Shown here piece after piece: positions 34,634-43,011 of a DNA stretch of 64,000 nt. The stretch is from Candidatus Acetothermia bacterium (GTDB lineage: Bacteria; Bipolaricaulota; Bipolaricaulia; RBG-16-55-9): contig JACQCZ010000014.1 of NCBI GenBank assembly GCA_016201405.1, positions 106,631-170,630 on the forward strand, given 5' to 3'. The notes under the pieces are model-generated. The model saw only the letters and a program-made list of their open reading frames with translations. It had not been told where the DNA came from and did not search any database. How positions within the stretch are numbered: position 1 is the first letter of the stretch; each line of letters opens with the position of its first letter. The position numbers and the translations under genes were made by a program.

Positions 34634-35053
34634 CTATGATTGAGATTGCCGAGAACAGCAGCAGCACGCTGGCTGCTCCGGCTTTGAACTGAGATTATGG
34701 GAAAGCTCTTCCCATTGTCTTGAGAACTTCGATGAGATCTCGAAATAACTCCATCTCCCTTCTCGCTGATTCTCTAATATGCCAGCCTGTACGAGCTGAT
34801 TGAGATGATGAATCACCGTAGAGTGCGAAAGCTCAAAGGCAGACTCAATCTCACAGCCGCAGAGCCGGCCATACTGCCGGACCAATTTGAAGATGGCCAG
34901 CCGATTTTTATCAGCCAAAGCGACCATGGTTCCCAAATCCACGGCAAAGCAGGAGTCATGGGTCAGCCCTTTTACGGCTTGCCGAAAGTCTGCGCTGCAA
35001 CAGCGCGCATCTTCATGAAGCTTCGAGAGTCTCTCTTTTAGCTCATTTTTCAT
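34634..35053 (-). CDS. ArsR/SmtB family metalloregulatory transcription factor
   Basis: ArsR HTH with LCGCEIE metal-site-like motif and C-terminal CCCC cluster. Start chosen at MKNELK (GAGGAG RBS upstream); the ORF extends to 35203. Confidence 0.7.
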   Translation of the reverse strand: MKNELKERLSKLHEDARCCSADFRQAVKGLTHDSCFAVDLGTMVALADKNRLAIFKLVRQYGRLCGCEIESAFELSHSTVIHHLNQLVQAGILENQREGRWSYFEISSKFSRQWEELSHNLSSKPEQPACCCCSRQSQS

Positions 35054-35065
35054 TGTGGCTCTCCT

Positions 35066-35087
35066 CATGTCGATATAAATAGACATG
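35066..35087. promoter_or_regulatory. perfect palindrome CATGTC-N10-GACATG upstream of the ArsR-family gene; candidate autoregulatory operator
   Basis: 6-bp arms, AT-rich 10-nt spacer (gatataaata), directly upstream of the RBS. Confidence 0.45.
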
Positions 35088-35180
35088 GAAGAATAGCACC
35101 AAGAGCTCCATGTTGTCAAGCCAGGGTGTTTGTGCGGGTCGATTTCTAGATAACATGTCCAGTGGTACAATGTCATCGAA

Positions 35181-35774
35181 ATGAACGAGATCCCAAAAGC
35201 CAAATTCTTCCGATCTCAAGCTCAATTGCATGCGTGGTTTGTCAAAAACCACACCGATACAACAGAAGTCTGGATTGGATTTTACAAGAAGGGCTCTGAC
35301 AAAAAGGGAGTCAGCTATTCAGAAGCCGTCGATGAAGCTCTCTCTTTCGGCTGGATCGATGGCATCATGAAGAGCATAGACGAGATCAGCTATGCCAATC
35401 GCTTCACGCCGCGAAGAGCGCGCAGCAACTGGAGCGAAGCCAATATCAAGCGTGTGGCCGAGCTTAGAAAACTGGGACGCATGCAACCATCCGGTCTTAA
35501 AGCTTTTCAAATGCGCGATGCGAAGAAGCCCGCCCAATATTCATACGAAAAGAGCTTCACGCTGGATTCAAAGTACTTAAAAGAGTTTAAGAAGAACAAG
35601 AGTGCCTGGGCATCCATTCAAGCTCAATCTGCTACCTATCAGCGCTCAGCAAGCTGGTGGGTGATGAGTGCAAAGCGAGAGGAGACACGCCTCAGGCGTC
35701 TAGCAATACTGATTGCTGACTCAGAGAATGGACGCAGAATCAGAGAGTTGACGCGTCCTGTCAAACCGAAGTAA
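35181..35774 (+). CDS. YdeI/OmpD-associated family protein
   Basis: 197 aa; WFVKNH...EVWIGFYKK...EALSFGWIDG and C-terminal RLRRLAILI pattern. Confidence 0.6.
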   Translation: MNEIPKAKFFRSQAQLHAWFVKNHTDTTEVWIGFYKKGSDKKGVSYSEAVDEALSFGWIDGIMKSIDEISYANRFTPRRARSNWSEANIKRVAELRKLGRMQPSGLKAFQMRDAKKPAQYSYEKSFTLDSKYLKEFKKNKSAWASIQAQSATYQRSASWWVMSAKREETRLRRLAILIADSENGRRIRELTRPVKPK

Positions 35775-35821
35775 ATAAGTATACTAGTTCGGAACAATCC
35801 ACAAGAAAGGGGAGAAGTATT

Positions 35822-36613
35822 GTGCCAAGGAAGCTCGTTCTATTGGCTCTGCTAAGCTTGGTATTTGGATTAGCAGGTATTCCAATTCTATCCGCACAAT
35901 CATCACAGCCATCCGCAGAAATCACCGTTGCCGCCGCCTCCAATTTGACGAACGCCTTTATGGCCATCGCGGACCAGTTCCAGAGTGCTACCGGAATCAA
36001 AGTGACTCTTAGCTTTGGCTCTACCGGAAGCCTCTCACAGCAGATCAGGAATGGAGCGCCCTTTGATCTCTTTGCCGCAGCCGATGTGGCCACGGTCGAT
36101 TCGCTAGTTCAAGGGGATTTTATTCTTCCAGAGAGTGAGAAATTGTACGCACGCGGAAAGCTCATCATCTGGTGGACTGCAGACAGCACAGTTCAAGTGA
36201 CAAAACTGGATGATCTGCTCGACCCGAAAATTGGTCGAATCGCCATCGCCAATCCTGATGTTGCTCCATACGGCGCCGCTGCCAAAGATACATTGATCGC
36301 AGCGGGTCTCTGGGATGTCTTGCAGCCAAAGATCGTCATAGCCGACAACGTCACGGCTACCAAACAAGTGGTAGCCACGGGTAATGCCGAAGTCGCCTTT
36401 ATTCCGATCTCTCTTGTAACACCTGGGAGAGACGGCTTCTTCGCTATTAGCGGCCAACTGCACAAGCCGCTCGATCAGGCTCTTGGTATTCTAAAGACAT
36501 CAACCCATCAAGATGCCGCACAACAGTTCATCACATTTTTGACAACGGGCGTGGGACGCGTAATTCTAGAAGACTACTGGTACAGCGCTCCCTGTGCTGA
36601 TCCATCTCTATGA
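35822..36613 (+). CDS. modA: molybdate ABC transporter substrate-binding protein
   Basis: 263 aa; signal peptide and ModA motifs (AAASNLTNAF, SFGSTGSL, FAAAD). Confidence 0.9.
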   Translation: MPRKLVLLALLSLVFGLAGIPILSAQSSQPSAEITVAAASNLTNAFMAIADQFQSATGIKVTLSFGSTGSLSQQIRNGAPFDLFAAADVATVDSLVQGDFILPESEKLYARGKLIIWWTADSTVQVTKLDDLLDPKIGRIAIANPDVAPYGAAAKDTLIAAGLWDVLQPKIVIADNVTATKQVVATGNAEVAFIPISLVTPGRDGFFAISGQLHKPLDQALGILKTSTHQDAAQQFITFLTTGVGRVILEDYWYSAPCADPSL

Positions 36614-37293
36614 GTCTCCCTTTCTGGAATGATATAGACTGGTTTCCGATCCAGCTCTCGTTTCGTGTCGCTGCGATCGCGACGTTTATTGCGCTTGTCG
36701 TCGGTCTGTCGTGTGGCTGGCTGCTGGCACGCAAGCGCTTCTGGGGCAAGGAATTTTTGGATTCGCTCATCACACTTCCTCTCGTTCTGCCACCGACTGT
36801 GCTGGGTTATTATCTGCTGGTGATGCTGGGGAACCGCAGCCCCATTGGGCAATTTATTCAAAATACGTTCGGGACACGCCTCACATTTACAGTGACAGCC
36901 GCTGTGATTGCCGCCTCGATTCATGCATTGCCTCTGTTTGTCAAAGCTGTGCGTGCTGCATTTGAACAGGTCTCACCGCAACTTGAACAAGCAGCGAGGC
37001 TGATGGGGGCTTCCGAGTGGCGCGTCTTTCGCACCGTAACTCTTCCACTCGGAGCACGAACTGTGCTGGCAGCGACGACGCTGGCCTTTGCCAGAGCGCT
37101 TGGCGATTTTGGCGTCACGATTATGATTGCAGGGAACATTCCCGGCAAGACCCAAACCGCCGCCGTCGCCATCTATGATGCTGTACAAGCCGGCAAGGAT
37201 GCACAGGCCGGGGCGCTGGTGTTAATCGTTTCCATACTGGCCATTCTGCTTCTCTATATCACCAACCGCATCAGTGCCAAGGCTCTCTGGTAG
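36610..37293 (+). CDS. modB: molybdate ABC transporter permease
   Basis: 227 aa; ABC permease EAA-type loop (AARLMGASEWRVFRTVTLPL). Confidence 0.9.
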   Translation: MSLPFWNDIDWFPIQLSFRVAAIATFIALVVGLSCGWLLARKRFWGKEFLDSLITLPLVLPPTVLGYYLLVMLGNRSPIGQFIQNTFGTRLTFTVTAAVIAASIHALPLFVKAVRAAFEQVSPQLEQAARLMGASEWRVFRTVTLPLGARTVLAATTLAFARALGDFGVTIMIAGNIPGKTQTAAVAIYDAVQAGKDAQAGALVLIVSILAILLLYITNRISAKALW

Positions 37294-37296
37294 GCT

Positions 37297-38403
37297 ATGC
37301 TCACTGCGCAAATCTCGATCAAGCGCACAACTCGCGATTCAGAGCCATTTCAGATAGAGGTCTCAATCCAAGCCAGGCAGGGAATCACAACTCTCTTTGG
37401 CCCTTCGGGCTCTGGCAAAAGCTCAATCTTGCAGGCCATTGCTGGATTGTTAAAACCCGATGCCGGACACATTGAAGTGGATAATCAAATCTTCTTTGAT
37501 TCCACAAAGCAGATTGATCTGCCTCTGAGAGATCGCTGCGTTGGGTATCTCTTTCAAGATCTGGCTCTCTTCCCACACCTCAGTATTGAAGCCAATGTTG
37601 CGTACGGCCTGCACTCGTTGAATAAAAAAGAGAAGCATGAGAAGGCACTCCAGATTCTTGAGAGCTTTGGACTTCAGGCTATGGCATCGCGCAAGCCCAA
37701 GCAGCTTTCGGGAGGGCAACAGCAGCGAGTCGCATTAGCACGAGCTTTGGTCATCAATCCCAGAATCTTGTTATTAGATGAGCCTTTGTCGGCACTCGAT
37801 TCGGCCACCAAGCGCGATCTGATGGCTGAGATCAAGAGAGTGGCTCAAAATTTGTCTATTCCCATTCTCTATGTGACGCACAGCCGCGATGAAGTCTTGG
37901 CACTGGCGCATCATGTCATTGCCCTTGATCGGGGACGAGTCATTGCAGAGGGCGAGCCGCTTCAGGTCCTTGAGAACGCAAGCAACCCGACCATTGCACG
38001 GCTGACGGGTGTCGAGAATCTATTTGTTGGGAAAATAATGGACAAGCATCTAGAGCGCGGCACGATGACCTTTCAGATTGATAAGACTCTCTTAGAGATT
38101 CCGCTTACTGATCAGGCCGTTGGAGAGGTCATTCAGGTTGCGATTCGGGCTGGTGATATCTTGCTCTCGCTGGCAGAGCCGAAGGGACTGAGCGCACGAA
38201 ATCGCATCGTTGGAAAGGTACTAGAAGTCAATCCGCATGAGCACAATCAGCTAGTGCGAGTGGAGTCCAGTCCTGGGGTCGTCTTTTCGGTCTTGATTAC
38301 GAGCAGCGCTCAACACGAGCTGAATGTGCATCCAGGGAAAAATATTTGGCTGCTCATCAAGACTCATGCCTGTCATATTTTGGCTGGCAGAGATTCATAT
38401 TAA
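37297..38403 (+). CDS. modC: molybdate ABC transporter ATP-binding protein with C-terminal MOP/TOBE domain
   Basis: 368 aa; Walker A GPSGSGKS, signature LSGGQQQR, Walker B LLLDEP. Confidence 0.9.
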   Translation: MLTAQISIKRTTRDSEPFQIEVSIQARQGITTLFGPSGSGKSSILQAIAGLLKPDAGHIEVDNQIFFDSTKQIDLPLRDRCVGYLFQDLALFPHLSIEANVAYGLHSLNKKEKHEKALQILESFGLQAMASRKPKQLSGGQQQRVALARALVINPRILLLDEPLSALDSATKRDLMAEIKRVAQNLSIPILYVTHSRDEVLALAHHVIALDRGRVIAEGEPLQVLENASNPTIARLTGVENLFVGKIMDKHLERGTMTFQIDKTLLEIPLTDQAVGEVIQVAIRAGDILLSLAEPKGLSARNRIVGKVLEVNPHEHNQLVRVESSPGVVFSVLITSSAQHELNVHPGKNIWLLIKTHACHILAGRDSY

Positions 38404-38650
38404 CAGTAAATTTCTGGATTCCGGCTCGCGCTTCGCGTGGCCGGAATGACGGGCAAGAAAGCACCCGTCATTCTTGCTTAATTTCGTATGTCATTCCTGC
38501 GAAAGCAGGAATCCAGCGGCTTTCTGTTTTTGGCAAGATTCGTAGATTCCTGGCTTCCGGGTCTACACTTCGCTTGGCTGGAATGACAATCTTATTGATG
38601 CCTGTCATATTTTGGCTGATAGAAATGAATTTCAGTAAAGGCCCAGAAAT
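38366..38650. repeat. composite palindromic repeat insertion at the 3' end of modC: 21-bp perfect direct repeats flanking nested GGAATGAC/GTCATTCC hairpin units
   Basis: atgcctgtcatattttggctg at 38366-38386 and 38598-38618; hairpin units between them. See finding. Confidence 0.6.
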
Positions 38651-38766: not shown

Positions 38767-39201
38767 TCACCTCTTAGCACACTCTTGACAGACTGATGAT
38801 CCTTTGTCAACCACACGTCCGCATTCGCGGCAATTGGACTTCAAATCTTCGTAACAGTTGGGGCAGATGGCATGCTCACGGCCAACCGGCTTTCCGCAGT
38901 GAGGGCATTTGGAGGTAAATGAAAGGTTAAACTTTGAGGCCTTCTCTGCCAAAGGCTCAGGATAGGCGCGCAGCCAGATGGCGATCTGTCTGCTGGCGCG
39001 GAACGAGAATGGAACCCAGAAAAAGGCAAAGATGACCCAACTGATCCATTCTAAGATGGGGGTCAGCTCGCGGGCAAAGAGAATTCCAACCCAGATCAGC
39101 AGCCAAAAGGGGAGCCAGCGAAGCCAGCCACCTCCAAACCACGAGATCGAGCAGATTCTCCGCTCAGATCTTCTCTCGCGTCTCCACGTGCGATAGCTCA
39201 T
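38767..39201 (-). CDS. membrane protein with C-terminal zinc-ribbon
   Basis: Tryptophan-rich TM helices followed by four CxxC pairs (CPHCGK, CPNCYE, CRECGR, CQEC). Start uncertain; the ORF extends to 39255. Confidence 0.5.
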   Translation of the reverse strand: MSYRTWRRERRSERRICSISWFGGGWLRWLPFWLLIWVGILFARELTPILEWISWVIFAFFWVPFSFRASRQIAIWLRAYPEPLAEKASKFNLSFTSKCPHCGKPVGREHAICPNCYEDLKSNCRECGRVVDKGSSVCQECAKR

Positions 39202-40066
39202 TGACTTCCAGTGACTCCTCGTATTCGACTCGCTCAATCTCGCAGCCCAGGCCAATGATCACATTTTTGCCGCGGACAATCTTGGCTTTGGTCGATTCCA
39301 AGTGAATCTCATCGCCTTCAATCGTTTCGGCTTCGAGCACACCATTGCCAATAAAGCCGCTCACGTGGATGCCAAAGTTACCCAAGCTCTCTTTGAGCTG
39401 CCCCATCATGTCGGCTATCTTCTCCAGATCAACATCAATGTTGACCCCGAAGTCATTGAACTTCCAGCGCTTTCCTCGTGCTTTCTCTTCCATGCGTCTC
39501 TTGAATTTATCTTGGTCAAAGCCGCCAAATTTCTGCAAGACTTCGATCTTTTCGCCGCCAATCTCACGGGCATGAGAATCCCCACCTAGCCGAATTGAGA
39601 TCTCGTCGGCGCTGAGCAGACCGCCAATCTCAAAAGAGCCTTCCGAGTTGAATTTGTCGGCCTCGACGTCACCGCCGACTGCGCATGTGCCGCTGATCTT
39701 GATATAGCTGGTAGTTAGCTTACCGCCGATCTTCTGCGTGCCAGAGCACTTAAAGACATCTGCTGAGACATCGCCATTGACCACCGCTGAGCCTGTGGTG
39801 CGCAGGTCTTCGGCTTTCACGTTGCCATCGACGCGGCATGAGCCTGCTGAGTGAAACTCTTCCGCTTCGGCATCCCCTTCGATCGCGCATGACCCTGCAA
39901 TGCTGATCGACTCGGCTTTGACATCACCGGCAATTGTCCCTGAGCCGGCCACTTTGATGCTCTGGTAGGTGCCGCCGCTGATCCGGCCCGAGCCGGCAAT
40001 CGTGACGCGCTCTGCGCCCTCTTCTTCTTTGGCCTCTGATCTCATGACCATAATCGCTCCTTTCAC
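39164..40066 (-). CDS. bactofilin-like (polymer-forming, beta-helical repeat) protein with two repeat domains
   Basis: 300 aa; repeated G-x-G beta-strand pattern (GSGRISGG, VAGSGTIAGDV, IAGSCAIEGD, ISGTCAVGGDV) typical of bactofilin/YhbE-YhbF-type proteins. Confidence 0.6.
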   Translation of the reverse strand: MKGAIMVMRSEAKEEEGAERVTIAGSGRISGGTYQSIKVAGSGTIAGDVKAESISIAGSCAIEGDAEAEEFHSAGSCRVDGNVKAEDLRTTGSAVVNGDVSADVFKCSGTQKIGGKLTTSYIKISGTCAVGGDVEADKFNSEGSFEIGGLLSADEISIRLGGDSHAREIGGEKIEVLQKFGGFDQDKFKRRMEEKARGKRWKFNDFGVNIDVDLEKIADMMGQLKESLGNFGIHVSGFIGNGVLEAETIEGDEIHLESTKAKIVRGKNVIIGLGCEIERVEYEESLEVNELSHVETREKI

Positions 40067-40260
40067 CGCCCGTATTTCTTATGCTGCAGCCAGCGGAAGA
40101 GCAAGTAGATTCCTCCGCCAATCAGAACCCACGGCAAGACCGCAGCCACCAATTCGACGGCTGCCGTCAGAATCTTGAACAGAATCAATATTCCAATGAG
40201 CAGAAGAACCCCTGCGCCGATGAGAAAGAGCAGATTCTTGAATGGATTGTCATTGTTCAT
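40063..40260 (-). CDS. small two-TM membrane protein
   Basis: 65 aa, two hydrophobic helices; ATGA-type overlap with the downstream bactofilin-like gene. Confidence 0.4.
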   Translation of the reverse strand: MNNDNPFKNLLFLIGAGVLLLIGILILFKILTAAVELVAAVLPWVLIGGGIYLLFRWLQHKKYGR

Positions 40261-40277
40261 GACTAGTCTTCACTCCT

Positions 40278-40931
40278 TCAGATACCCCGTAAGCTCAGTT
40301 TCGTCTCTTCGACAAGCTGACTCAGATCCAGTTGTGCGACAATCTGCGTCTCGGGGTCAAATCGCACCTTCGATTTGGGAGCGATGCAGCAGAGGCTGCT
40401 CCCCTTCTCTTTGCGCAGCACCCATAGAGTCCAGTCGGCTTCGGATTCGCTTGCCGGCAATACATCGGCGTTGAGCGTGGAGAGAACAAGCCTTAACTCT
40501 TCCTGAGCCAGCTCTTTCGTCCCCAGCTCTTCGAGCGCCGCAATCTGAATGACATCTCGAAATGGGAATGGACTCTCATGCCCAGTGATCGTCTGAAAGC
40601 GCTTTAAGGTCTCAGTCGAGATAAATTTATTGACCAGCTCTTTAAGATCAAACCTGGCTTCCGTAGATTCAGGCGAGAGCATCTCTGTGATCTCTTCCAG
40701 GCTGTAATCTTCCTTGAGCTTCATGATCCGCTCGATGCGCTCAATGATCTTATCGCTCGGCAAAAAAGTCTCTTGGCCAGTAAAGGTGCTCTTGCGGATA
40801 AACCAGGACTCGGGGATGAGCCCCTTCCGCTTCCAGCGGTAAAACTGGCCATACGAGATGCCAAATTTATCTAGAATCCCTTTCTTGGAGATCAGTTCCG
40901 GCTCTCGCTGTGTAACCTCTTTGTCAGCCAT
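40278..40931 (-). CDS. DUF4004 (YhbD-like) MerR-type HTH protein
   Basis: N-terminal motif ISKKGILDKFGISYGQFYRWKRKGLIPESWFIRKSTFTGQETF. Start chosen at MADKEV so the pspA promoter lies in intergenic DNA; the ORF extends to 41012. Confidence 0.55.
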   Translation of the reverse strand: MADKEVTQREPELISKKGILDKFGISYGQFYRWKRKGLIPESWFIRKSTFTGQETFLPSDKIIERIERIMKLKEDYSLEEITEMLSPESTEARFDLKELVNKFISTETLKRFQTITGHESPFPFRDVIQIAALEELGTKELAQEELRLVLSTLNADVLPASESEADWTLWVLRKEKGSSLCCIAPKSKVRFDPETQIVAQLDLSQLVEETKLSLRGI

Positions 40932-40980
40932 AACGATTGCATTGTAACATAACACTGTTACGATTACAAGAGGGAAGAGT

Positions 40981-41009
40981 TTTGCAGGACCGGCTCGCTC
41001 TCTTATAAT
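40981..41009 (+). promoter_or_regulatory. putative sigma70-type promoter of pspA-like gene
   Basis: TTTGCA at 40981-40986, 17-nt spacer, TATAAT at 41004-41009; about 65 nt upstream of ATG 41075. Confidence 0.45.
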
Positions 41010-41074
41010 CAATGGGCTAGGCGAGCTTATGAGGATTCAACCCACATGAGACTCGGAGCGAAAGGGGCATCTGA

Positions 41075-42175
41075 ATGAGCATATTTAGCCGTTTTCGAGA
41101 CATCATCAAATCCAATCTCCACGCTGCAGCCGACAAGATTGAGAACCCGGAATATATTCTGGATTCCAAATATGACGACTTGCTCCATGAGCGGAAGCGT
41201 ATCGAGCAAGGCGTGCGGGATTCCATCGCCCACCGCATCATGATCCAGAATGAGATGGAAGATCTGCGCAAAAAGATCGGCAAGGTCTTTGAGCAAGCCA
41301 AGCTTCACCGCCTGAAAGCCCTTTCATTGGAAGAGAAGGCCAAAGAGGACCCCAAGTCACAGGTTCAGCTGGAGAAGCACAATAGCGAAGCCCTAAAGCG
41401 CCTGCAAGACAAGATGCGCATGGAAGAGAAGCTGGGCGAGTTTCAAGAGAAGTTCCAGAAGGCCGAGCTGCGCATCAATGCCATGAAAGAGAAGCAGATC
41501 GCTCTCCAAGCCAAGCTGGAAGATCTGAGATTGCGCAAAGAGGAGATCAAGAGCGAGCTGCGCATGGCTGAGGCGGAGCGCAAGATTTCGTCCGCCCTTT
41601 CCGGTCTGGATGGCGACTTTGGCGATGTTGACCTCACCATTCAGCGCATCGAAGACAAAGTGAAGCGGACCAAAGCCCTGGCTGAAGCCACAACCGAGAT
41701 GGCCCTGGAGATGGGGCGCGCACGGGGTGATGTGATCGAGATTGAAGGGGTCACAGAGCTTCGCGCCGAATCGGCATTGAAGAAACTGGATATTGAGCTG
41801 CTTGGCGAAGGACAGATCGAGAGACTCGCTCCAGGTGAGATCGAATTCTTCACTATTGAGGTCTCGGGCGGCGGAACGTGGGCCTTCCCCGCCAGCGATA
41901 AGAAGGAGATCTTGGCATCGCTCAACCAGATTGACAAAGAGATGACCCGACTCAAAGAGAAGAATGAGCTCGACCATGACGGCTTTGAAGAGAATTACAA
42001 AAAGATCTTTCAGATCATCCGCAAGCGCGGCAAACTTGTAGGCCGGGACATCAAGATGAGCGCCGTGGCACGAGACAAAGCCACAACTGAGCCGGCAATT
42101 CGCATCCCACCTGAAGATTTGGAGTACAGCGAGGCGATCAAGCTGCTCGAAGGTGAAGGGCTGATCGCGGATTAA
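41075..42175 (+). CDS. pspA: PspA/IM30 family protein with roughly 130-aa C-terminal extension
   Basis: 366 aa; N-terminus MSIFSRFRDIIKSNLHAAADKIENPE and coiled-coil PspA core to about residue 230; unrecognised C-terminal domain. Confidence 0.8.
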   Translation: MSIFSRFRDIIKSNLHAAADKIENPEYILDSKYDDLLHERKRIEQGVRDSIAHRIMIQNEMEDLRKKIGKVFEQAKLHRLKALSLEEKAKEDPKSQVQLEKHNSEALKRLQDKMRMEEKLGEFQEKFQKAELRINAMKEKQIALQAKLEDLRLRKEEIKSELRMAEAERKISSALSGLDGDFGDVDLTIQRIEDKVKRTKALAEATTEMALEMGRARGDVIEIEGVTELRAESALKKLDIELLGEGQIERLAPGEIEFFTIEVSGGGTWAFPASDKKEILASLNQIDKEMTRLKEKNELDHDGFEENYKKIFQIIRKRGKLVGRDIKMSAVARDKATTEPAIRIPPEDLEYSEAIKLLEGEGLIAD

Positions 42176-43011
42176 TGCTCGATCTCGCGTTTGAGTTTGG
42201 CTTCGAGCTCCATCAATCTCTGCTCTAGCTCGTGCTTTTCTGGTGATTCTAGCGCCTCGATCTTGACCACTTCACAGAGGTGCTGCGGCTCTGTGAATCC
42301 TTGCAAGCGCTGTGTGCCACGCTCCACAAACTGAAAATCCCGTGAGGGCCCGACCAAGTTTCGAATAATATCAGAGACCCAGATCTCTCCACCCCGAGCA
42401 CAATCCGCGATGCGGGCGGCCAGATTGACTGTGCGCCCGATATAATCGCCATGCTCTTGGATCGGCTCACCTGAGTTGATGCCAATACGCACACGAATCG
42501 GCTCCATGTGCTTGAAATTATAAGTCTTAAAGATCTCCTGGATATCGAGCGAGCACTGGACGGCCTTACGCGCCGATGAGAACGAGACCATAAAGCCGTC
42601 GCCGTAATTCTTCACTTCCAGCCCGTCGTGGCTCTTGATCTGATCCCTCATAATGCGATTATGGATCTGCAGAATCTCATGTCCAAGCTCATCCCCTCGG
42701 TCGACAAAACGGGAAAAGTTCTCGATATCACTGAAGAGAATCGTCACAGTCCCTTGTGATGGGCCCATCTCACGCCGGATGCGCTCGGTCTCTTCTTTGC
42801 CGACCCGCTGGGCGAGCTGATCCGCCCTGTCTTTGCGGGAGAGCTTCTTTTCCAGCATCTCGATGCGATCGGCCAGAGCTGGGTCAGAGCCTGACTTTCC
42901 CGCGATGCGGGTCGCCCAAGCCTTGGCCGGCGGTGAGTTCAAGATGATCTTCAAGATCGACCCGGAGAAGATAAAGACGACTGCAATTAGAGCGATTAAG
43001 TCCCAACCCAT
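42172..43011 (-). CDS. membrane-anchored class III adenylate/guanylate cyclase (paralogue of 3529-4467)
   Basis: 279 aa; N-terminal TM helix and cyclase core (FSDIENFS...YGDGFMVSF...RIGINSGEPI). Confidence 0.8.
   Translation of the reverse strand: MGWDLIALIAVVFIFSGSILKIILNSPPAKAWATRIAGKSGSDPALADRIEMLEKKLSRKDRADQLAQRVGKEETERIRREMGPSQGTVTILFSDIENFSRFVDRGDELGHEILQIHNRIMRDQIKSHDGLEVKNYGDGFMVSFSSARKAVQCSLDIQEIFKTYNFKHMEPIRVRIGINSGEPIQEHGDYIGRTVNLAARIADCARGGEIWVSDIIRNLVGPSRDFQFVERGTQRLQGFTEPQHLCEVVKIEALESPEKHELEQRLMELEAKLKREIEH

Follow-up and report, generated by a model that had tools for sequence, protein, structure and literature searches.

The locus described here raises the question of whether a bactofilin operon and a gene for the phage-shock protein PspA, standing back-to-back, form one envelope-stress system or two units. 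It lies in a stretch of 64,000 nucleotides (nt) from a Candidatus Acetothermia bacterium (Bipolaricaulota) genome, contig JACQCZ010000014.1, which we call the window. The minus strand carries an operon of four tightly packed genes, encoding in order a DUF4004 regulator of the YhbD family (yhbD or bacR), a 65-amino-acid (aa) protein with two transmembrane (TM) segments, a bactofilin-family protein and a two-TM zinc-ribbon protein; pspA is divergent from yhbD at a distance of 143 base pairs (bp) (Table 1). An initial annotation had described these five genes and proposed that the locus functionally combines bactofilins with PspA and small membrane anchors. The observation is confirmed, as the open reading frames (ORFs) and their layout are real and profile searches bear out every assignment made (PspA/IM30, DUF4004, bactofilin, zinc ribbon); for the interpretation, support is partial. 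We consider it probable that the locus consists of two separable units, a BacR-type bactofilin operon with an 18-bp candidate BacR operator in its promoter and a gene for a PspA-PspAA fusion with a promoter of its own. This reading is carried by the gene identities, the conservation of the operon and that of the 18-bp element, which occurs almost exclusively with yhbD, and the restriction of the PspA adjacency to one clade.

The product of the first operon gene matches PF13171 over profile positions 1-196 of 197 (E = 1.9e-55 to 2.8e-55) and contains the helix-turn-helix (HTH) motif ISKK..L....ISYGQ[FL]YRWKR, as printed for the family (PMC13649987, PMC5050335), with a core that is invariant in 26 sequences. 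The HTH/recognition-helix residues Y-G-Q-x-Y-R-W-K-R are invariant across phyla. Against Protein Data Bank (PDB) sequences, a YhbD profile gave a marginal match only (7xn2, E = 0.2). Translation is placed at ATG 40931, as the resulting 217-aa protein is 100% identical to the NCBI entry 'DUF4004 family protein [Candidatus Acetothermia bacterium]'; the TTG at 41012 is not the start. Such 5′ over-extension by ORF callers swallows the promoter and operator, both in the TTG ORF of the window (40932-41012) and in JGI calls at two related loci (L213 6001-6078, L089 5861-5928; L-numbers denote surveyed loci), and a similar mis-annotation of yhbD has been noted for B. subtilis (PMC13649987). At one locus of the same five-gene layout, otherwise intact, yhbD is split into two overlapping ORFs (L090 5204-5879), which reflects a frameshift or pseudogene if it is not an error of assembly.

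A genome scan with an alignment of YhbD yielded 80 loci in Bipolaricaulota, Bacillota, Thermotogae, Bacteroidota and relatives, Dehalococcoidia, an actinobacterial metagenome-assembled genome, Fraserbacteria and Methanobacteriaceae; the family had been listed only for Bacilli, Clostridia and Methanobacterium (PMC13649987). When eight loci fetched through PspA are included (n = 88), a bactofilin-like gene accompanies yhbD in 77, and it does so in 90 of the 120 metagenome loci found by exact match of contigs to a 19-mer of the promoter element. The order yhbD then bactofilin gene is seen in nearly all loci, and the neighbours otherwise vary widely. The pairing of yhbD with bactofilin genes, noted for Bacillus in the initial annotation, is real and nearly universal.

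Two members of the family have been characterized. B. subtilis YhbD, renamed BacR in September 2026, is a DNA-binding dimer that influences its own yhbDEF operon only; the bactofilins BacE and BacF bind BacR and block its DNA binding, and BacR forms membrane foci that depend on the bactofilins and goes to the nucleoid after vancomycin (PMC13649987). C. acetobutylicum Cap0037, encoded upstream of a bactofilin-like gene, is an autorepressor (50-68-fold; PMC5050335). Judged from its sequence, the DUF4004-bactofilin unit of the window is a BacR-bactofilin module, to which partner switching and autoregulation would extend by analogy. It shares with yhbDEF the DUF4004 regulator as first gene, the YhbE/F-type bactofilin downstream and the HTH motif, but has one bactofilin rather than two, with an insert of about 65 residues, adds the two membrane protein genes, has a leaderless-like start where B. 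subtilis has a Shine-Dalgarno leader, and is divergent from pspA-pspAA. The Cap0037-Cap0036 pair on the megaplasmid pSOL1 likewise has the DUF4004 regulator, which strongly represses itself, upstream of a bactofilin-like gene; Cap0037 differs in being a megaplasmid-encoded global metabolic regulator with neither membrane partners nor PspA.

The inverted repeat reported in the divergent intergenic region, GTAACA-N6-TGTTAC, is real, although it lies at 40944..40961, 2 nt from the interval first given (40942-40959). It forms the outer palindrome of an 18-mer, GTAACAGTGTTATGTTAC, which is present in a single copy in the window (0 expected), with no second operator copy there. When the 143-bp intergenic region is shuffled, 27% of the shuffles contain a perfect repeat with 6-bp arms and a 0-12 nt spacer, so that within the window alone the repeat is not above chance; its significance comes only from its conservation across phyla. 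Directly upstream of yhbD, a site at least 15/18 identical to the 18-mer was found in 72 of 82 loci (at least 17/18 in 52, exact in 26). These loci span all the phyla found in the genome scan, with unalignable flanking sequence, and include four from Methanobacteriaceae, which lack sigma-70-type promoters. Positions 3-6, 8-10 and 16 are invariant. The consensus with flanks, TT(G/T)ACA-AC-GTAACA(G/a)TGTTATGTTA(C/T)A-n-T, comprises a −35 hexamer, a 17-nt spacer and a TG-extended −10. The 18-mer thus fills the spacer of the yhbD promoter and overlaps the −10, in a fixed place between the two hexamers and with 15 spacer positions near-invariant across loci.

Among the metagenome loci with the exact 19-mer, 113 of 120 carry yhbD on the same stretch, directly downstream in 78; in most of the others, yhbD and an extra copy of the element flank a small ORF. 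Across loci, yhbD is the only constant neighbour of the 18-mer. A role as an RNA element was rejected, as the window has no Rfam match and the element overlaps the −10, so that most of it would be untranscribed. In the window clade, ATG 40931 and its counterparts follow the −10 by 9 nt, from which the bacR mRNA is predicted to be leaderless or nearly so, compared with a 30-40-nt leader with GGAGG in Bacillota.

Because the YhbD HTH is invariant across the same phyla and no gene other than yhbD is a constant neighbour, the most economical reading is that GTAACAGTGTTATGTTAC is a candidate BacR operator. A site that fills the spacer of a near-consensus promoter predicts autorepression, in agreement with the 50-68-fold derepression in the Cap0037 mutant: BacR at the 18-mer would occlude the promoter and so repress its own operon, as Cap0037 has been shown to do. 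If B. subtilis BacR is a guide, the polymerized bactofilin would keep BacR off the DNA and free it upon envelope stress. MerR-type activation was rejected, as it needs a spacer of 19-20 bp, compared with the 17 nt of the window and of the cross-phylum consensus, and MerR_1 is a weak sub-threshold match in 12 of 26 family members.

Several findings weigh against the operator assignment. The only footprint of a family member, that of Cap0037 (ATATTTTCATATAAAT, PMC5050335; L216 2337-2352), lies about 100 bp upstream of the variant of the 18-mer on pSOL1, GTAACAATGTTATGTTAT. GtBacR bound DNA without evident specificity (PMC13649987). Loss of yhbD in B. subtilis lowered operon mRNA (PMC13649987), which argues against simple autorepression in that organism. 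The link between BacR and the element is a prediction, as are BacR binding and the direction of regulation in the window. These points suit the alternative that the 18-mer belongs to another widely conserved factor or is an intrinsic promoter or DNA-structure feature, with BacR acting elsewhere or non-specifically: the Cap0037 footprints are AT-rich and unlike the 18-mer, GtBacR binds its own region little better than unrelated DNA, and part of the element doubles as the TG-extended −10. We regard this alternative as quite improbable, as the element is near-exclusive to yhbD loci and travels with yhbD across bacterial phyla into archaea, where sigma-70 logic is inapplicable, fifteen near-invariant spacer positions exceed the needs of promoter function alone, the recognition helix of YhbD is equally invariant, and no other gene is constant across loci.

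The candidate operator also bears on both experimental systems. On pSOL1, the variant GTAACAATGTTATGTTAT (L216 2439-2456) lies 40-60 nt upstream of the CA_P0037 ATG, within a promoter (TTGCAA, 17 nt, TATATT) just before CA_P0037; judged from sequence, the actual promoter and operator of the CA_P0037 operon may have escaped notice. B. licheniformis, closely related to B. subtilis, has the same 18-bp element upstream of yhbD (L217 1187-1204), where it follows the trmL(cspR) terminator and precedes the yhbD ATG by 24 nt, suggesting that the yhbDEF promoter of the B. subtilis group is intergenic and not inside cspR, where it was predicted in a study that defined no specific BacR site (PMC13649987). 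Neither experimental paper reports the 18-mer (PMC13649987, PMC5050335), and a literature text search for the string returned unrelated primer hits only. As far as the searchable literature goes, it is new that the bacR promoter contains an 18-bp element which hardly varies between Bacillota, Bipolaricaulota and methanogens; this element gives the B. subtilis BacR and Cap0037 systems a precise, testable candidate operator.

A number of loci (L009 6238, L010 7670, L012 7658, L014 7692, L015 4989, L018 1836, L215 5710 and many of L093-L212) carry a second, often perfect copy of the promoter with the 18-mer, some 270 bp upstream of the one at yhbD, and this copy precedes small ORFs of about 60-80 aa. 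Two types recur among them, 'MFNIFDEL...FLALAFKAFGTNGQMNWKL' and proteins with an '...A.ERYRELLRQAE.ER...' helix. These small ORFs are probably extra members of the regulon.

The bactofilin-family protein matches PF04519 (E = 1.8e-11, 44.6 bits, cut-off 27.9) in two stretches, which had been taken as two repeat domains. The family assignment holds, and a profile of the family retrieves BacA (2n3d, E = 1.2e-5) and 6ria (E = 0.006) from PDB sequences, but the two domains are replaced by one predicted, split beta-helix on the evidence of rung pattern and model. Rungs of 17 residues span residues 15-173, three or four more lie at 239-294, and between them is the poorly conserved insert of about 65 residues, which is charged and disordered. 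The protein models as one continuous long beta-helix split by a disordered insert. A Foldseek search with this model retrieved no solved bactofilins, which counts against our reading of the operon. In one other Acetothermia yhbD operon, the small TM gene is separated from the bactofilin genes by a gene for a PEMT/ICMT-family membrane methyltransferase (L017 9047-9520).

The operon differs from those of Bacillota in its two added membrane proteins, both absent from Bacillota yhbD operons. The genes are closely packed, with gaps of 17 nt between yhbD and the 65-aa gene and about 11 nt between the latter and the bactofilin gene, and an overlap of 38 nt between the bactofilin and zinc-ribbon genes. 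The zinc-ribbon ORF runs from 38767 to 39255 (minus strand), but translation probably begins at ATG 39201 ('MSYRTW'), a start whose 38-nt overlap is kept in L001, L089 and L090. Its product has a basic N-terminus, two hydrophobic (TM) segments and, as claimed at first, four CxxC pairs (CPHC, CPNC, CREC, CQEC), which form a C-terminal double zinc ribbon (DZR, PF12773, 31.9 bits, cut-off 27.3; PF18912, 32 bits, cut-off 27). Homologues follow the bactofilin gene in L001, L089, L090, L009, L011, L024, L214 and L215, often as two paralogues in L009, L011, L214 and L215, and in a Fraserbacteria locus.

The 65-aa protein has homologues encoded at its place in the operon in L001, L089, L090 and L213-L215, which share the C-terminal motif GGxxYLxYRWxQ (basic, Y-L-x-[YF]-R-W-x-Q/K...), which is also found in similar small multi-TM proteins of other Bipolaricaulota and Thermotogae yhbD operons. 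Neither this protein nor the related small TM proteins match a Pfam family above cut-off, and kinship with LiaI, PspC or holins was rejected, as such matches were sub-threshold noise. The 65-aa and zinc-ribbon proteins are lineage-specific additions of Bipolaricaulota, Thermotogae and Fraserbacteria. From the charge distribution we infer that both termini, and hence the zinc ribbons, are cytoplasmic, which would suit membrane tethering of bactofilin or BacR. The two small proteins might hold the bactofilin polymer at the membrane, a role proposed because no other anchor is evident. BacR operons well outside the Firmicutes, in some phyla with small membrane proteins that are candidate bactofilin anchors, are new per the searchable literature.

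The second unit encodes the PspA-PspAA fusion. PspA matches PF04012 over residues 2-211 (54.0 bits, cut-off 33.9, E = 2.3e-14), as do all 30 family members, and about 155 C-terminal residues extend beyond this match. The extension had been described as novel and unassignable, a claim that is rejected: residues 277-366 match PF22743 (PspAA, 'PspA-associated protein'), marginally in the window protein (28.9 bits, cut-off 27, E = 1.5e-6), in 29 of 30 family members (best E = 1.1e-10). An AlphaFold2 model built on 30 homologues places helices at residues 25-89, 93-181 and 183-207 with a predicted local distance difference test (pLDDT) score of about 90, followed by a low-confidence linker (205-254) and the PspAA domain (about 258-366). 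The compact part of the latter (258-358; pLDDT about 80-86) is modelled with four strands (258-263, 267-272, 320-322, 342-344), three long helices (273-295, 301-318, 351-358) and a short helix (328-332). This agrees with the published PspAA fold, a beta-sheet of four strands together with three helices, which adjoins or is fused to PspA, with direct fusions known from Actinobacteria and Chloroflexi (Ravi et al. 2024, PMC11237479). The best Foldseek matches of the model are Vipp1 (6zvr, 8qbs, 7o3w; E = 2e-4 to 1e-3), with PspA (4whe, 7abk) also retrieved, and the long helical hairpin (alpha1-alpha3) followed by alpha4 is as in solved PspA and Vipp1. A profile of the PspAA domain found no solved relative.

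By sequence and model, the protein is a member of the ESCRT-III-like PspA/IM30 family fused to PspAA, with a predicted membrane-remodelling role. The PspAA tail, like the DUF4004-bactofilin pairing, is already in the literature; what is new is its occurrence in the phylum Bipolaricaulota, its genomic context and its strongly conserved motifs (SGGGTWA, LVGRD and PPEDLE are invariant in the family alignment). The domain architecture is that of the published fusions and dyads, but the family is small (29 hits), and two of its contexts, DUF4004/bactofilin in the window and CDP-alcohol phosphatidyltransferase in relatives, are absent from the published survey, which mentions neither bactofilin nor DUF4004 nor YhbD (PMC11237479). 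Outside the window clade, pspA-pspAA is divergent from or close to the CDP-alcohol phosphatidyltransferase gene (L003 7320-7877, L004, L092 4147-4701, L005 5631-6179, L007 1682-2245), and the most distant relatives also have HSP20 and Band_7/NfeD genes nearby. A phospholipid-synthesis context is possible for this PspA family.

We then considered whether the two units are coupled. The five-gene layout is seen directly in L001/L002, L089 and L090, at PspA identities of 66-68% and YhbD identities of 53-60%, and the survey suggests the same layout in P0001, P0002 and P0003. The initial annotation had looked to synteny in other genomes, and such synteny exists. It extends in the window clade over the surrounding 20 kb or so, bounded on one side by genes for VWA, rhomboid, holin-like and GGACT proteins and on the other by those for two ABC exporters, AlaRS and an M42 peptidase, so that the retained adjacency of pspA and yhbD is not independent evidence of coupling. 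In L091 (63% PspA identity), the same backbone has pspA directly beside a CMD gene and no yhbD operon there; a relocated operon at the end of L091 was rejected for want of a phmmer match. Relatives at 58-59% PspA identity have pspA beside the CDP-alcohol phosphatidyltransferase gene. Other contigs of the same samples carry yhbD operons (L091 and L213 are from one sample, L092 and L215 from another), showing that both units are kept, apart. In L214, a homologue of the cyclase gene that flanks pspA in the window is directly upstream of yhbD, so the window layout equals that of L214 with pspA lying in opposite orientation between the two. Hidden Markov models of either half (PspA or PspAA), run at E ≤ 10, and an E. 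coli PspA probe sequence found no PspA/PspAA near yhbD in about 200 other loci (80 genome, 120 metagenome), and a general PspA-YhbD linkage is rejected. We take the PspA adjacency to have arisen in one Bipolaricaulota subclade.

The intergenic geometry leaves some room for coupling. The −35 elements of bacR and pspA are back-to-back, 11 bp apart, and the distance from operator centre to pspA −10 is 51.5-53.5 nt in the window (51.5), L001, L089 and L090, placing the operator near −63 of the pspA promoter; this spacing, conserved in four loci with otherwise diverged intergenic sequence, is a point against separability, as it could mean that the units are coupled. The juxtaposition may then let BacR influence pspA. 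The fullest version of this idea is an integrated envelope-stress system in which one BacR operator serves both divergent promoters: BacR freed by membrane damage from the membrane-tethered bactofilin would shut its own operon and activate pspA-pspAA from a class-I-like position, coupling a bactofilin sensor to an ESCRT-III-like repair effector, with the TM and zinc-ribbon proteins as anchors or sensors. It would fit the retention of the layout down to YhbD identities of 53-64%, the position of pspA exactly between two genes that are contiguous in L214, the speculation of the BacR authors on a stress line parallel to Lia/LiaH (PMC13649987), and the precedent of PspA beside zinc-ribbon membrane proteins in B. 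subtilis ydjFGHL, where YdjG and YdjL carry zinc ribbons (PMC11237479). Downstream of the L213 yhbD operon, moreover, stand genes for a Toastrack (DUF4097) protein and for an ABC transporter, both of them phage-shock-associated themes.

The integrated system is nevertheless unlikely in our judgement. The adjacency is confined to a subclade with about 20 kb of synteny including AlaRS, related organisms keep the units apart, the roughly 200 other yhbD loci have no PspA nearby, no operator-like site was found upstream of pspA where pspA is not adjacent to yhbD, and pspA is served by a promoter of its own, with TATAAT at −71/−72 from the ATG, and by a conventional leader. Functional coupling of the bacR operon to pspA is possible, but we doubt it to about the same degree. 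The same doubt applies to a BacR-bactofilin switch wired to the ESCRT-III-like effector, in which BacR released from a membrane-tethered scaffold would, from the single operator of both promoters, turn on PspA-PspAA upon envelope damage; if true, bactofilins would for the first time be linked, genomically and mechanistically, to phage-shock/ESCRT-III membrane repair. The proposed functional combination of bactofilin and PspA/small-anchor themes is thus weak, since adjacency is limited to the syntenic subclade and the small TM protein has no LiaI- or PspC-like match. Both LiaIH and ydjFGHL of B. subtilis, like the locus described here, have a PspA homologue beside small membrane protein genes, but this locus lacks a two-component system, and its membrane proteins are encoded in the divergent bacR operon rather than in the pspA transcription unit. 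Among the window genes scanned with Pfam/NCBIfam, none has a LiaI-LiaF-TM, PspB/PspC, PspF-type, Toastrack, band-7 or TPM domain. One lineage with a BacR module back-to-back with PspA-PspAA is new per the searchable literature, and is so far the sole genomic hint for the bactofilin/PspA cross-talk speculated on by the BacR authors.

The bactofilin operon could also be a purely cytoskeletal or morphogenetic module for cell shape or flagellar assembly, without stress sensing and with a coincidental PspA neighbour. The roles first ascribed to B. subtilis BacE/BacF were in motility and in the assembly of the flagellar hook and filament (PMC4627819), BacR loss is reported to have no fitness effect under sublethal vancomycin (PMC13649987), and the neighbours of yhbD operons vary widely. 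We hold this to be rather unlikely, given that vancomycin triggers BacR relocalisation, that selection for resistance to a cinnamycin-like lantibiotic yielded, among other changes, a nonsense mutation in yhbD, with small effect (PMC12837462), and that Toastrack and ABC-transporter genes follow related operons. A BacR-bactofilin operon responsive to the envelope, beside an independent pspA-pspAA unit, remains the reading we prefer.

Concerning those downstream genes, a DUF4097 (Toastrack) protein and/or ABC_tran + ABC2_membrane pairs are encoded after the yhbD operons of L213 (8723-9628), L214 (5332-8789) and L215 (8857-10599), the Toastrack protein only in L213. Both themes are linked to envelope stress in the phage-shock survey (PMC11237479).

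Table 1. Coordinates of the features of the locus within the window.
Feature	Position	Strand	Basis
Zinc-ribbon membrane protein, ~144 aa, last gene of bacR operon	38767..39201	-	ORF, PF12773 + PF18912 above cut-off
Bactofilin-family protein, 295 aa; alternative GTG start at 40066	39164..40051	-	ORF, PF04519
65-aa protein, two TM segments	40063..40260	-	ORF, homologues at same operon position
BacR/YhbD-family (DUF4004) HTH regulator, 217 aa, first operon gene	40278..40931	-	PF13171
18-bp candidate BacR operator, GTAACAGTGTTATGTTAC on bacR-sense strand	40944..40961	-	Cross-phylum conservation
bacR promoter-like site: TTGTAA, 17-nt spacer, TG-extended TACAAT	40941..40969	-	Promoter scan
pspA promoter-like site: TTTGCA, 17 nt, TATAAT	40981..41009	+	Promoter scan
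PspA-PspAA fusion, 366 aa	41075..42175	+	PF04012, PF22743, AlphaFold2 model
Membrane-anchored class III adenylate/guanylate cyclase	42172..43011	-	PF00211, E = 1.4e-21

The cyclase gene flanks pspA in the window, L089 and L090, and its stop overlaps that of pspA by 4 nt in convergent orientation. L214, a locus without pspA, has a homologue (E = 3.6e-50; L214 1668-2510) immediately upstream of its yhbD promoter. The cyclase is a recurrent neighbour of this type of bacR operon and may belong with it in this lineage.

At the 3′ border of the bacR operon, relatives carry a CMD-family gene beside the zinc-ribbon gene; in its place the window has genes of ArsR-like and OmdA-like proteins and of the molybdate transporter ModABC (34634-38403), a local replacement. 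Between the convergent modC and zinc-ribbon genes (38400-38600) lie about three copies of a palindromic unit of about 40 nt, resembling repetitive extragenic palindromic sequences or miniature inverted-repeat transposable elements, which reads …GGATTCC…GGAATGAC / GTCATTCC…GGAATC… and has a 24-nt core found nowhere else in the window.

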